From an uncultured Gemmatimonadales bacterium (GTDB lineage: Bacteria > Gemmatimonadota > Gemmatimonadetes > Longimicrobiales > RSA9), in NCBI GenBank assembly GCA_963741945.1, contig CAVUKA010000001.1, positions 1,120,001 through 1,184,000 of the forward strand: 64,000 bases of DNA, read 5' to 3'. The position numbers and the translations under genes were made by a program. The notes under the pieces were generated by a model that did not search any database, was not told the DNA's origin, and saw only the letters and a list, made by a program, of their open reading frames with translations. Of this stretch, positions 8,366-11,358 are shown one piece after another. The number at the start of each line of letters is the position of its first letter. Positions within the stretch are counted from its first letter, which is position 1.

Positions 8366-9358
8366 TCAGATCAGACCTGCGCCCCTGAAAATGAAGAACA
8401 GAGCCACGCCACCGAGAACCCGGGGGAGTCGATTGGTCCGTGACGTCAGCAGGTACAGCGTGAGGACGGCCCCGATCGGAGCCGCGAAAGCGTACGTCAC
8501 CAGGAACGTCATGAACGCTTCCTGGATCCACAGGCCGATGAGGCGGAACGGCGAGAGCGCGCCAATGCCGGTGTGGATGAGCGGTCCCCCCACCTCCTGG
8601 ACCAGGTCGAACATGAGGAAGATGGCGGTGAACACCGCACCGACCTCCAGGTAGAGCGCCGCTTCCGCCCGCTCTCGACGCCGGAACGGAGCCATGATGA
8701 GGCCCGTCAGCGGGCGAAGGAGGAGCGCGGGGGGCGAGCCCGGACGGTTGTAATAGTAGAAGAGACGGAGCCGATGGCTCCAGCGCACCAGCGACCCCGC
8801 CAGCGGCACTTCGTTCAGCCGCCCCACGTGGCCACCCAGCATGGTCACCAGGATGAGCGCGCCCACGGCGAACGCCGCCTCCGCGCCGCCCTCCACATTC
8901 CCCACCATCCCGCCCAGCACAGACCCGGCGGCAATGAGCACCAGCACGTCCCCGGTCAGACGCACCACCCGCTCCCGCCTCGTCCTCGCCCGCCACCTCT
9001 CCGTCCAGGCGGGCGGGCGGGACAGGACGTCATCGGACAGCGGCGGCATGAAATCCAGCTCCAGCGGCGGAAGCCCCTCCCTCTCCCGCCGCGCCTGCTC
9101 GGCGTTGTACCCCTCCACCATGCGCCTCAACCGCCACGCATCCGAAATCCACCAGAGGAGCGCGCCACCGCCGGTCACGACCATGGCCAGACCCGTCCCC
9201 GGCCGCTCCAGGTAGAAACGGTGCGCACCGAGCCACCCGAACACCGCCCACAACGCCCACGCCACGCCCACGCGCTTGCGTCGATAGGCATACAGCTCCC
9301 CCAGGACATCCTGGGCAAAGTCGGCGTCCACGCCTGCGTGCACCGAGACTGAGCTCAT
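8366..9358 (-). CDS. TM2-domain membrane protein with extra C-terminal TM region
   Basis: AWALWAVFGWLGAHRFYL TM2 motif, then several hydrophobic helices. Confidence 0.75.
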   Translation of the reverse strand: MSSVSVHAGVDADFAQDVLGELYAYRRKRVGVAWALWAVFGWLGAHRFYLERPGTGLAMVVTGGGALLWWISDAWRLRRMVEGYNAEQARREREGLPPLELDFMPPLSDDVLSRPPAWTERWRARTRRERVVRLTGDVLVLIAAGSVLGGMVGNVEGGAEAAFAVGALILVTMLGGHVGRLNEVPLAGSLVRWSHRLRLFYYYNRPGSPPALLLRPLTGLIMAPFRRRERAEAALYLEVGAVFTAIFLMFDLVQEVGGPLIHTGIGALSPFRLIGLWIQEAFMTFLVTYAFAAPIGAVLTLYLLTSRTNRLPRVLGGVALFFIFRGAGLI

Positions 9359-9499
9359 GCCCCACAAGCTGCCTCCCGGAGTGGCGATCATGCAACCACG
9401 CCGCCGCCACCCCGGCGACCGGGCCGGCCGGCCCCTCCGCCCGCCCCACCCCGCGCGCCGCGTCCTGCCTCCCATGGACGCGGGAGCGCCCGCCCTCGA

Positions 9500-9685
9500 T
9501 GTGGATAAGCGGCGCCGGCTTGTGGATTCCCTGTGGGAAAACCGGGTCAAAATTGTGAATACGAGCTGTTACAAAACCCGAAGTCCTGATGCCGTGGTCA
9601 GATGGCGGAATTGTGGATTACGCGGTTTCTGGATCCTCTTCTGACATCCGCATAACTCATTGTCTTGGAACGACTTGTGGCACAA
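9500..9685. promoter_or_regulatory. Cluster of co-oriented DnaA-box-like sites in an AT-rich island
   Basis: TGTGGATAA 9500-9508 (perfect); TGTGGATTC 9521, TGTGGGAAA 9532, TGTGAATAC 9554, TGTGGATTA 9612 (1-2 mismatches to TGTGNAWAA). Confidence 0.6.
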
Positions 9686-9695
9686 CTCAAAATCC

Positions 9696-9725
9696 TTGAC
9701 TGCGGCACCCTCGCGGGTGTATCAT
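9696..9725 (+). promoter_or_regulatory. sigma70-type promoter
   Basis: TTGACT (9696-9701) N18 TATCAT (9720-9725). Confidence 0.65.
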
Positions 9726-9731
9726 TGGATC

Positions 9732-10020
9732 CAGACGGCGATGGTACCGCGACCTAGGAATCAACGCCGTCGCTTCCGGAAGGGACGCTTTTCGGAGGCA
9801 GCTCGCCGAAGGATTCGGCTGACGGCGAGCCGGCTGCGAGGTTACTGGCCGCAGCTGTAGCTCCTGAGGCCATGGAGCACCCGATCCGCGGGTCGCGCGG
9901 TGAGGGGTAAGGCGAAACGAGGCGGAGCGGACCGAAGGGTCACGCCACCGAACCGAAAGCCCTCGACGCCGCCAGTGGTGCGAGCCCCCGGGACCGGTTT
10001 CGACCGAGCCCGGGGGTTCC
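9732..10020 (+). ncRNA. Candidate structured non-coding RNA, family unassigned
   Basis: Contiguous hairpins 9734-9771, 9772-9799, 9801-9830, 9831-9857, 9860-9878; multi-stem 9902-9964; terminal hairpin 9982-10019 with UUCG loop; follows promoter. Confidence 0.55.
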
Positions 10021-10158
10021 TGCATCCAGCCGGCACCCGCGACGGTCCGGCGCGATCCGATCCATCCACCCTCGCCGTTGACGCGAGCGAAATCGCCCGA
10101 CACGCCGTGGACGGCCTGGCCGTCCTGTACGCTGACCCGCTTCCCCGATATCTCGCCC

Positions 10159-11358
10159 ATGGATCGCCGCACCTTCGTGAAGACGGGCGCCGCCGCTGCG
10201 GCCGGCGCCTCACTGCCCCGGGCGCTGCATGCCGAACGCCCGGTCCCGGGGGCGCCCGGTGTGCTGGCGCGCCGAACGCGGGACCCTCTGCTGATTGCGG
10301 ACGTGAGCAGCATCCGGTTCCGGAACGGGGGGACGGAGAGCGCGATCGAGCGGGCGTACCGCGGGATCGAAGCGGGTGAGGATGTCCTGGACGCGCTGGT
10401 TTCGGGCGTGCGCATCCCGGAGCTGGATCCGGAGGAAACGGGGATCGGGTACGGCGGACTGCCGAACGCCAGCGGCGTGGTGCAGCTGGACTCGTGCTGC
10501 ATGCACGGGGAGCGTCGCTGGGCAGGAGGCGTTGCCGCGCTGGAGGGGGTCCCGACCGCGGCGGCGGTAGCGCAGAAGGTGGCGACCCTCACCGACCATC
10601 ATCTTCTCGCGGGAGCGGGGGCGAAGGAGTTCGCCCGTGACGTGGGCTTCGAGATCATGGAGGACCTGAACACGGAGCGCTCGCGCGCGCTCTGGCTCGA
10701 GTGGCGGCGCCGGGTGGACCCGGAGCACTGGCTCGATCCGGATGAGCGGACGGGGCGGGGAGAGAGCGCGGCTGGCATGACGGGGCGCGGGCGGGGCCGG
10801 CAGGCTGCCCGGGCAGAGGCGTGGTACCGGGCCGGACGCTCCATGGTGCGCGACGGCCTGATCCCGGAGCATTCGTTCTGGGGCACCACCAACCTGAACG
10901 CGCTCACGCCTGCGGGGCACGTGGCCGGCGTCACCACCACCAGCGGGCTGGCCTGGAAGATCCCGGGGCGTGTGGGTGACTCGCCGATCCTTGGCGCGGG
11001 GCTCTATGTGGACGATGCCGTGGGCGCAGCGGGGTCCACGGGGCGGGGCGAAGCGAACCTGTACAACCTGTCGAGCTATCTGATCGTCGAGAACATGCGT
11101 CGCGGGCTGGCGCCCAAGGACGCGGGCATGGCCGCCCTGCGTCGCATAGCCGACAACACGGTCGAGCCCCGTCTCCTGAACGACCGCGGGCTCCCCGCGT
11201 TCGATGTCCGGTTCTTCATCCTGGACCGTTCCGGCCGGTACGCCGGCGTGGCGCTGTACGGCGCGGCGGAGAAGATGTTCGCGGTCATGGACGGAAGTGG
11301 CGCGCGGGAGGAGCCGCTGGAAGGCCTGTTCGAGGGGCGCCCGGAGGACGACAGGTAG
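10159..11358 (+). CDS. Tat-exported glycosylasparaginase / isoaspartyl peptidase (Ntn hydrolase)
   Basis: MDRRTFVK Tat signal; GIGYGGLPN, WGTT nucleophile site, TTSGLAWKIPGRVGDSPILGAG. Confidence 0.88.
   Translation: MDRRTFVKTGAAAAAGASLPRALHAERPVPGAPGVLARRTRDPLLIADVSSIRFRNGGTESAIERAYRGIEAGEDVLDALVSGVRIPELDPEETGIGYGGLPNASGVVQLDSCCMHGERRWAGGVAALEGVPTAAAVAQKVATLTDHHLLAGAGAKEFARDVGFEIMEDLNTERSRALWLEWRRRVDPEHWLDPDERTGRGESAAGMTGRGRGRQAARAEAWYRAGRSMVRDGLIPEHSFWGTTNLNALTPAGHVAGVTTTSGLAWKIPGRVGDSPILGAGLYVDDAVGAAGSTGRGEANLYNLSSYLIVENMRRGLAPKDAGMAALRRIADNTVEPRLLNDRGLPAFDVRFFILDRSGRYAGVALYGAAEKMFAVMDGSGAREEPLEGLFEGRPEDDR

Follow-up and report, generated by a model that had tools for sequence, protein, structure and literature searches.

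The window, a 64,000-nucleotide (nt) stretch of DNA from an uncultured Gemmatimonadales bacterium (contig CAVUKA010000001.1 of assembly GCA_963741945.1, positions 1,120,001 to 1,184,000), contains an intergenic locus that very probably, judging from comparative analysis, is a genuine structured RNA gene of a new family. The locus is flanked upstream by a minus-strand gene for a TM2-domain protein and downstream by a plus-strand Asparaginase_2 gene, which has a Tat-like RRTFVK leader and an ATG at 10160, approximately 140 nt past the last hairpin of the RNA. The locus is composed of a sigma-70-type promoter and an RNA whose fold, as derived from covariation, consists of a row of seven hairpins (P1–P7) and a terminator hairpin (P8). 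Three long-range pseudoknot helices (PK1–PK3) connect the hairpins (Table 1). The RNA is predicted to start 7–9 nt after the -10 element and to end after the terminator hairpin and a conserved tail, UUCYUGCAUC.

Table 1 Features of the RNA locus. Positions are those of the window; RNA position 1 is window position 9732. The last column gives the share of paired cells and the pairs changed on both sides in the family.
Feature	Window positions	Strand	Segments and motifs	RNA numbering	Pairing in the family
Sigma-70-type promoter	9696..9725	+	-35 TTGACT 9696-9701, 18-nt spacer, -10 TATCAT 9720-9725		
RNA	9732..10026	+	about 295 nt, predicted ends		
P1	9734..9771	+	outer stem 9734-9740/9765-9771, inner stem 9742-9745/9760-9763; loop CGACC 9750-9754 (PK1 5' strand)	3-9/34-40, 11-14/29-32	helices 1 and 2, 82.7% and 89.1%; 11/11
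P2	9772..9799	+	9772-9783/9788-9799; conserved loop GGGACGC	41-52/57-68	helix 4, 87.3%; 12/12
P3	9801..9830	+	9801-9808/9823-9830; loop AUUCGG 9813-9818, family consensus GUUCGG (PK3 5' strand)	70-77/92-99	helix 5, 90.3%
P4	9831..9857	+	9831-9838/9850-9857; loop ACUGGC 9844-9849 (PK2 5' strand)	100-107/119-126	helix 6, 96.0%
P5	9860..9878	+	length varies	129-133/143-147	helix 8, 89.0%; 5/5
P6	9880..9907	+	CCC/GGG 9880-9882/9905-9907, CCGCG/CGCGG 9886-9890/9896-9900; loop GGUCG 9891-9895 (PK1 3' strand)	149-151/174-176, 155-159/165-169	
P7	9911..9970	+	long hairpin, helices 12-15; conserved 3' bulge CACCGAAC, with CCGAAC 9948-9953 (PK3 3' strand)	180-239	
PK2 3' strand	9971..9976	+	GCCAGU, single strand just 5' of the terminator; pairs with the P4 loop		
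P8 terminal hairpin	9985..10016	+	GC-rich, UUCG cap; tail UUCCUGCAUC to 10026	254-261/278-285	helix 16, 95.8%; 6/8

The fold of the RNA is supported by two alignments of its homologues. Alignment A1 contains 26 copies aligned with MAFFT, was not fitted to any structure, and served as the basis of the covariance models R1 and R2. In A1, 82.4% of the cells of the modelled pairs can pair, compared with 34.9–45.6% when the pairing partners are slid, and 57 of the 84 pairs changed on both sides. Alignment A3 was obtained by aligning 83 hits, which correspond to 81 distinct sequences, to R2. The share of paired cells in A3 is 86.9% (35.4–42.2% with slid partners), 86 of the 91 pairs are compensatory, and the covariation score is 0.424 (0.036–0.063 with slid partners); none of 500 shuffles reached any of these measures. 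The collection of homologues that an earlier note on this DNA, made from the letters alone, had proposed as a check of its RNA prediction is in place. Among the genomes behind the tallies and alignments, G016, G017, G020, G085 and G038 are unpublished.

The three pseudoknot helices are absent from the covariance models, so the alignment was not fitted to them. PK1, first seen by RNAalifold, joins the loops of P1 and P6. It is paired in 91.2% of the cells and includes two covarying pairs, one alternating between G-C (44) and A-U (13), the other between C-G (29) and U-A (25). PK2 joins the loop of P4 to the single strand preceding the terminator, is paired in 93.2% of the cells, and has an end pair that alternates between A-U (35) and G-C (38). 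PK3 joins the (A/G)UUCGG loop of P3 to the bulge of P7 and is paired in 91.7% of the cells. Its two strands vary in matched fashion: GUUCGA with UCGAAC (three sequences), GUUCAG with CUGAAC (two), UUUCGG with CCGAAA (three), and furthermore GUUUGG with CCAAAC, GUCUGG with CCAGAC, CUUGAA with UUCAAG, and CUUGAG with CUCAAG. Taken jointly, PK1–PK3 are 92.2% paired, compared with 14.8–40.6% for slid partners, and 13 of their 17 pairs are compensatory; none of 500 shuffles equalled these values. A blind mutual-information scan of all column pairs ranked the modelled helices on top and recovered the pair C85-G219 of PK3. The three helices cross one another and join elements of the 5' half to elements of the 3' half in the same order (P1 to P6, P3 to P7, and P4 to the tail). 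Two sequences from genus g39 have a divergent 5' domain and carry GAAA or UGAAAU in the P6 loop in place of the PK1 partner, which fits a joint loss of both sides of PK1.

The individual hairpins differ in how their loops are used. The P4 loop, GAGGUYRCUGGC, is the most conserved one (G109 in 78, G110 in 79, C114 in 78, U115 in 79 and G116 in 79 of the 81 sequences). The P2 loop is also conserved, with G53 in 68 and A54 in 66 of the 81 sequences, and contains the sole conserved GGA of the RNA. The conserved unpaired bases are GGGACGC of the P2 loop and GAGGU of the P4 loop; both segments are left exposed in the predicted compact fold, the strictly conserved P2 loop being apparently unpaired. 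P6 has an internal loop with tandem G-A between its two stems. Folding the P7 segments of 78 members as single sequences yielded the same three-tier hairpin with a 3' bulge despite differing helix sequences.

The plus strand of the segment 9730–10025 folds with -160 kcal/mol (z = -4.96), and none of 200 shuffles is as stable. The minus strand has z = -0.93, and 36 of 200 shuffles are equally stable. Among 6724 pair cells of the alignment, G-U and U-G together account for 527, as opposed to 233 for A-C and C-A, which identifies the plus strand as the RNA strand. No conserved open reading frame (ORF) was found in the 83 copies: 13 of them lack a closed ORF, and the length of the longest one varies from 0 to 82 codons.

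The promoter agrees with the consensus in 10 of 12 positions and is the sole sigma-70-like site within 9000–10600, where shuffled sequences yield 0.1. The pattern CTTGAC-N17-19-TATNVT has ten matches on both strands of the 4.09 Mb genome, the promoter of the RNA among them. Directly 5' of the -35 element lies an AAAA run (9689–9692). A site agreeing in at least 9 of 12 positions is present in 36 of 80 distinct regions upstream of homologues, compared with 20 of 1995 random 72-nt windows from the same loci, and is mostly located at one fixed distance from the RNA. The layout in f1, the family of the window's genome, is CTTGAC(C)-17-TATCAT-6/7-CAGACG. In the sister family f2, the model match starts within the RNA and -10-like words occur approximately 45–50 nt farther upstream, which indicates that the 5' domain differs in f2.

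P8 is read as a putative intrinsic terminator. It is followed by UUCYUGCAUC in family f1 and by a U run, GGGGGCUUCCUUUUUU, in f2, and both this U run and the f1 tail fit such a function. A simple terminator scan found none at the window locus, because the tail there is poor in U. Homologues include matches to the full length of the model (positions 1–294), and the promoter, body and last hairpin are conserved together as one unit. The earlier note had described a near-consensus promoter, an unbroken series of stems on the plus strand and a UUCG-capped last hairpin about 140 nt before the next gene. It had read them as a standalone non-coding RNA (ncRNA) with its own promoter, possibly of a new class, that would fall if the region were conserved only as a protein-coding ORF. 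The conservation of the unit, the covariation and the absence of both an Rfam match and a conserved ORF bear this out. One structural detail of the earlier description, a multiloop closed by GAGGG and CCCTC, is not conserved among relatives. The GGG within GAGGG belongs to P6, with the CCC strand as its partner, and CCCTCG pairs with CGAGG inside P7, where the helix covaries in the family.

The RNA does not resemble a catalogued family. With Rfam 15, no family reached its gathering score anywhere in the window. A search of 9350–10250 at E ≤ 10 returned only two chance matches to animal long non-coding RNAs (E 7.7 and 9), and eight loci of distant relatives gave no match at E ≤ 0.5. Housekeeping RNAs were rejected as candidates, since the genome's own RNase P RNA, transfer-messenger RNA (tmRNA) and signal recognition particle (SRP) RNA are located elsewhere, at C5:113391, C1:225494 and C3:273211, respectively. 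These results agree with the earlier note, which had seen no hallmarks of tmRNA, RNase P, SRP or riboswitches and had proposed a covariance-model check. Separately, several weak 76–78-nt matches to the tmRNA model occur at C1:1189574-1191160 of the same genome, approximately 5.6–7.2 kb past the end of the window; they look like a tRNA gene cluster caught through the tRNA-like part of the model. Full-text searches for ncRNA of Gemmatimonadota found no description of this RNA or of any lineage-specific ncRNA of the phylum; supplementary tables of motif-discovery papers, which lay outside the search, might list it. The available portion of PMC11109978 does not mention Gemmatimonadota, and that of PMC6704655 gives ncRNA counts unrelated to the RNA.

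The RNA gene is accessory rather than universal, and occurs in at least two orders of one Gemmatimonadota class in one to six copies per genome. A DNA search matched 21 of 61 related genomes, all from family f1 (20 of 36 when the window's own genome is excluded), and none of the 12 f2 and 12 f3 genomes. Model R1 detected the RNA in 59 of 73 genomes of f1 (36 of 44 high-quality genomes; 32 of 37 genera), with 1–6 copies each. Some f1 genomes contain tandem copies, for example three within 2.7 kb in G013. Across the order, R1 found the RNA in 50 of 101 genomes, namely 27 of 33 in f1, 20 of 34 in f2, 2 of 33 in f3, and the window's own genome; the hits in f2 score 50–113 bits, with one copy per genome. 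Model R2 found it in 12 of 121 genomes of the phylum, including 7 of 28 in f5, which belongs to a different order within the class, and in none of the 53 genomes of f4 or the 13 of f10. Five non-carrier genomes contained no divergent copy at E ≤ 1 in a search run without a positive control. Because the model was built from a single family, its limited reach may account for part of the patchiness.

A loose pattern scan of contigs identified 117 stretches in many phyla, and 100 of the 117 loci were then searched with the model. It produced 24 full or near-full-length hits in 21 of the 100 loci, of which one is labelled "uncultured bacterium" and 20 bear Gemmatimonadota labels (Longimicrobiales, Gemmatimonadaceae, Gemmatimonadales, Gemmatimonadetes or Gemmatimonadota). 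Records from other phyla match only the 21–25-nt pattern itself. The window's own genome (4.09 Mb) has a single copy of the RNA. In addition, a 46-nt hairpin at C6:109389-109434 of that genome, outside the window, matches the terminator part of the model with 28 bits on both strands; it is probably a GC-rich terminator that resembles this part in sequence without being related to it.

The genes next to the RNA vary. At 12 loci of f1, the downstream neighbour is convergent in five cases, another copy of the RNA in two, and a gene on the same strand in five. The five same-strand genes have no Pfam family in common: four belong to different families, and the fifth matches none. Another 23 loci vary just as much, and no conserved neighbour gene was found in the window's family across the loci compared. 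The varied neighbours indicate that the RNA is not a leader. Synteny is only local and restricted to the sister family f2. In genus g39 (loci L196, L198, L199 and L205), RNase E/G and/or L21/L27 precede the RNA on its own strand, and an SSF symporter flanks it on the other side, with the full order RNase E/G-L21-L27-RNA in L199 only. In genus g37 and its kin g45 and g59 (loci L190, L193, L200, L201, L203 and L208), the genes around the RNA are differing sets of E2, lipB, RNase H and carA, and L201 has the full order E2, lipB, RNA, methyltransferase, carA. A single f1 locus, from the unpublished genome G017, has carA and E2 around the RNA. The g39 copies are preceded by purine-rich DNA with no clear promoter within 60 nt, and the RNA of this genus may be longer or co-transcribed.

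We consider it probable that the RNA belongs to a new class of trans-acting molecules of about 295 nt, which have their own promoter and terminator and act through their fold. It would be transcribed from its own strong sigma-70-type promoter, and transcription would end at its own terminator hairpin. The three crossing helices tie the 5' half to the 3' half into a compact fold, and the RNA would act in trans through this three-dimensional shape, most likely by binding a protein and less likely by binding a small ligand. We tentatively suggest the binding of a protein in trans. RNAs of this kind serve most often in protein binding, and such a role would agree with the exposed, strictly conserved bases of the P2 and P4 loops and with the tandem paralogues. 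Neither TROVE/Ro nor Hfq was found in the window's own genome, and given also the csrA survey described below, the partner would be neither CsrA, Hfq nor Ro.

Several points weigh against this interpretation. Transcription, the ends of the RNA and its abundance are predictions from sequence. Nor is a complex pseudoknotted fold specific to protein binders; it would equally suit a ribozyme, a self-assembling RNA or one that binds a ligand. Pair counts for the nested part of A3 are inflated, because this part was fitted to the model, and the relatedness of the A3 sequences makes the shuffle control overstate significance. The spread is patchy (0 of 53 genomes in f4, 2 of 33 in f3), and one g37 genome, complete to 100% and assembled as a single contig, has no hit at E ≤ 1, in a genus where 7 of the 8 genomes sampled carry the RNA. 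No conserved neighbour hints at a partner, a target or a phenotype.

The RNA is closest in kind to raiA and other orphan structured RNAs. Like raiA and the large RNAs OLE, ROOL, GOLLD and HEARO, it is encoded by a free-standing gene with a dedicated promoter and terminator, measures a few hundred nt, and has many conserved helices and pseudoknots. Like them, it also has no linked protein gene, is limited to certain phyla, and its function cannot be deduced from context. It differs from them in its phylum, Gemmatimonadota, and in its architecture of a row of seven hairpins with crossing loop-loop, loop-bulge and loop-tail helices. Neither the window nor the eight distant loci match the Rfam models of these RNAs, all of which are presumably held in Rfam 15. 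The function of raiA is given as still unknown in PMC12968392.

Gemmatimonadota are abundant in soil and barely studied. To our knowledge, RNAs of about 295 nt with several covarying pseudoknots are rare. Earlier examples have proved to act as ribozymes, as riboswitches, as the cores of ribonucleoproteins or as self-assembling cages. The present analysis provides a precise, testable object: the ends of the RNA are predicted, its base pairs are modelled together with three tertiary helices, a covariance model retrieves the family members, and carrier and non-carrier genomes are listed. Two obvious readings are cleared away, as a CsrA sponge is refuted and the features of the canonical 6S structure and model are absent, although the RNA might still bind RNA polymerase. 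This leaves the question of what the fold binds or does.

It is rather unlikely that the RNA is a functional analogue of 6S or Ms1 RNA, binding RNA polymerase as holoenzyme or core and tuning transcription with growth phase. The RNA shares with 6S and Ms1 the presumed action in trans, the dedicated promoter, which is unusually strong, the dispensability, and a size of a few hundred nt. Ms1 has a similar length, and 6S RNA is duplicated in Bacillus, as the present RNA sometimes is. The 6S model RF00013 finds no 6S RNA in the window's genome, and none above the cut-off in 61 genomes of the order, where the one weak hit of 34 bits comes from the unpublished genome G038; however, the model detected 6S RNA in only 4–5 of 14 control genomes, which makes its silence in the order weak evidence. 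The structure does not support the 6S/Ms1-like nature suggested in the earlier note. The RNA has neither the rod shape and central bubble of 6S nor a stem that joins its two ends, which instead belong to separate hairpins, P1 at the 5' end and P8 at the 3' end; the hairpins that covary are local. Furthermore, there is no match to RF00013 at E ≤ 10 in 9350–10250.

Alternatively, the RNA could function without a protein as a ribozyme, a ligand sensor or a homo-oligomer in which some of the pseudoknot helices are intermolecular, as in OLE, ROOL and GOLLD, the homo-oligomerization of which is reported in PMC12286853. We regard this as unlikely. Covariation looks the same whether two strands pair within one RNA or between two identical copies of it, and the RNA has three crossing helices and no linked gene for a partner protein. 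The idea is, however, an indirect one, the RNA is smaller than OLE, ROOL and GOLLD, a single molecule can also accommodate all three helices, and no Rfam model of a self-cleaving ribozyme matches. We speculate, with low confidence, about an RNA machine specific to Gemmatimonadota, with a catalytic or ligand-binding core, or with a homo-oligomeric form if some of the pseudoknots are intermolecular; no known bacterial RNA would then match it in function.

A cis-acting leader or riboswitch, in which P8 would control the downstream asparaginase-like gene, is very improbable. The arrangement in the window would allow it, as the element ends in a terminator-like hairpin and the next gene follows on the same strand after 140 nt. 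However, the 12 f1 loci described above, with their convergent genes, further RNA copies and same-strand genes of no common Pfam family, do not preserve this arrangement, and no riboswitch model matches.

The lead idea of the earlier note, a sponge similar to CsrB or RsmZ that titrates CsrA through GGA motifs in its loops, is hardly tenable as a general function. The window's genome has csrA, and the words CTAGGAA, AAGGGAC and AAGGATT, which the earlier note had listed as exposed, are indeed present in the loops of the first three hairpins. As with CsrB and RsmX/Y/Z, several hairpins stand in a row, and the RNA has multiple copies in some genomes, some of them tandem paralogues. In contrast, csrA, for which that note had suggested a check, is missing from 41 of the 50 carriers of the RNA. 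It is present in 20 of the 101 genomes of the order (9 of 50 carriers and 11 of 51 non-carriers), which are apparently the same 101 genomes as in the survey of the RNA, judging from identical family tallies and matching listed handles. Of the 34 f2 genomes, 20 have the RNA and one has csrA. GGA is not enriched: the RNAs contain 8.7 GGA on average, compared with 7.0 ± 2.5 in shuffled sequences, and a mean of 2.0 lie wholly in unpaired columns. The GGA in the P2 loop, which keeps its start column in 59 of 81 sequences, is the only one to reach half of them or more, whereas those of CTAGGAA and AAGGATT are not conserved at their positions. Moreover, conserved loops are engaged in internal pairings, and no Csr or Rsm model of Rfam matches in the window. 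Within f1, csrA is present in 5 of 6 genomes without the RNA and in 7 of the 28 carriers. Given the low counts and the relatedness of the genomes, two of which belong to one genus, the difference may reflect lineage history rather than exclusion.

That the locus is no RNA gene at all, but a protein-coding stretch, a repeat or a mobile element, can practically be dismissed: long open frames do cross the region on both strands, as they do throughout GC-rich DNA, and the element is multi-copy in some genomes, yet the frames are not kept in the homologues, the helix substitutions are compensatory, the window's genome holds a single copy, and no transposase or phage link was found, the lone pattern hit in a viral contig covering only 21 nt of the model.

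The DNA preceding the promoter contains further recurring elements. Most f1 copies (e.g. L157:1441-1500, L160 and L161) have an A-run just 5' of the -35 element and a TTAC(G) word approximately 15–20 nt farther upstream, which could be an UP-like element or the binding site of a regulator. In the window, the AT-richer segment 9480–9690 contains TGTGGAT-like words: TGTGGATAA at 9500, which is a perfect DnaA box, TGTGGATTC near 9521, TGTGAATAC near 9555, TGTGGATTA at 9612, and TGTGGCACA near 9676. An origin of replication (oriC) at this place was rejected, since only the two boxes at 9500 and 9612 match the DnaA box with at most one mismatch, and a denser cluster is located at C4:301167. The TGTGGAT-like words may instead form the site of a regulator common to the RNA promoter and the divergent TM2-domain gene.

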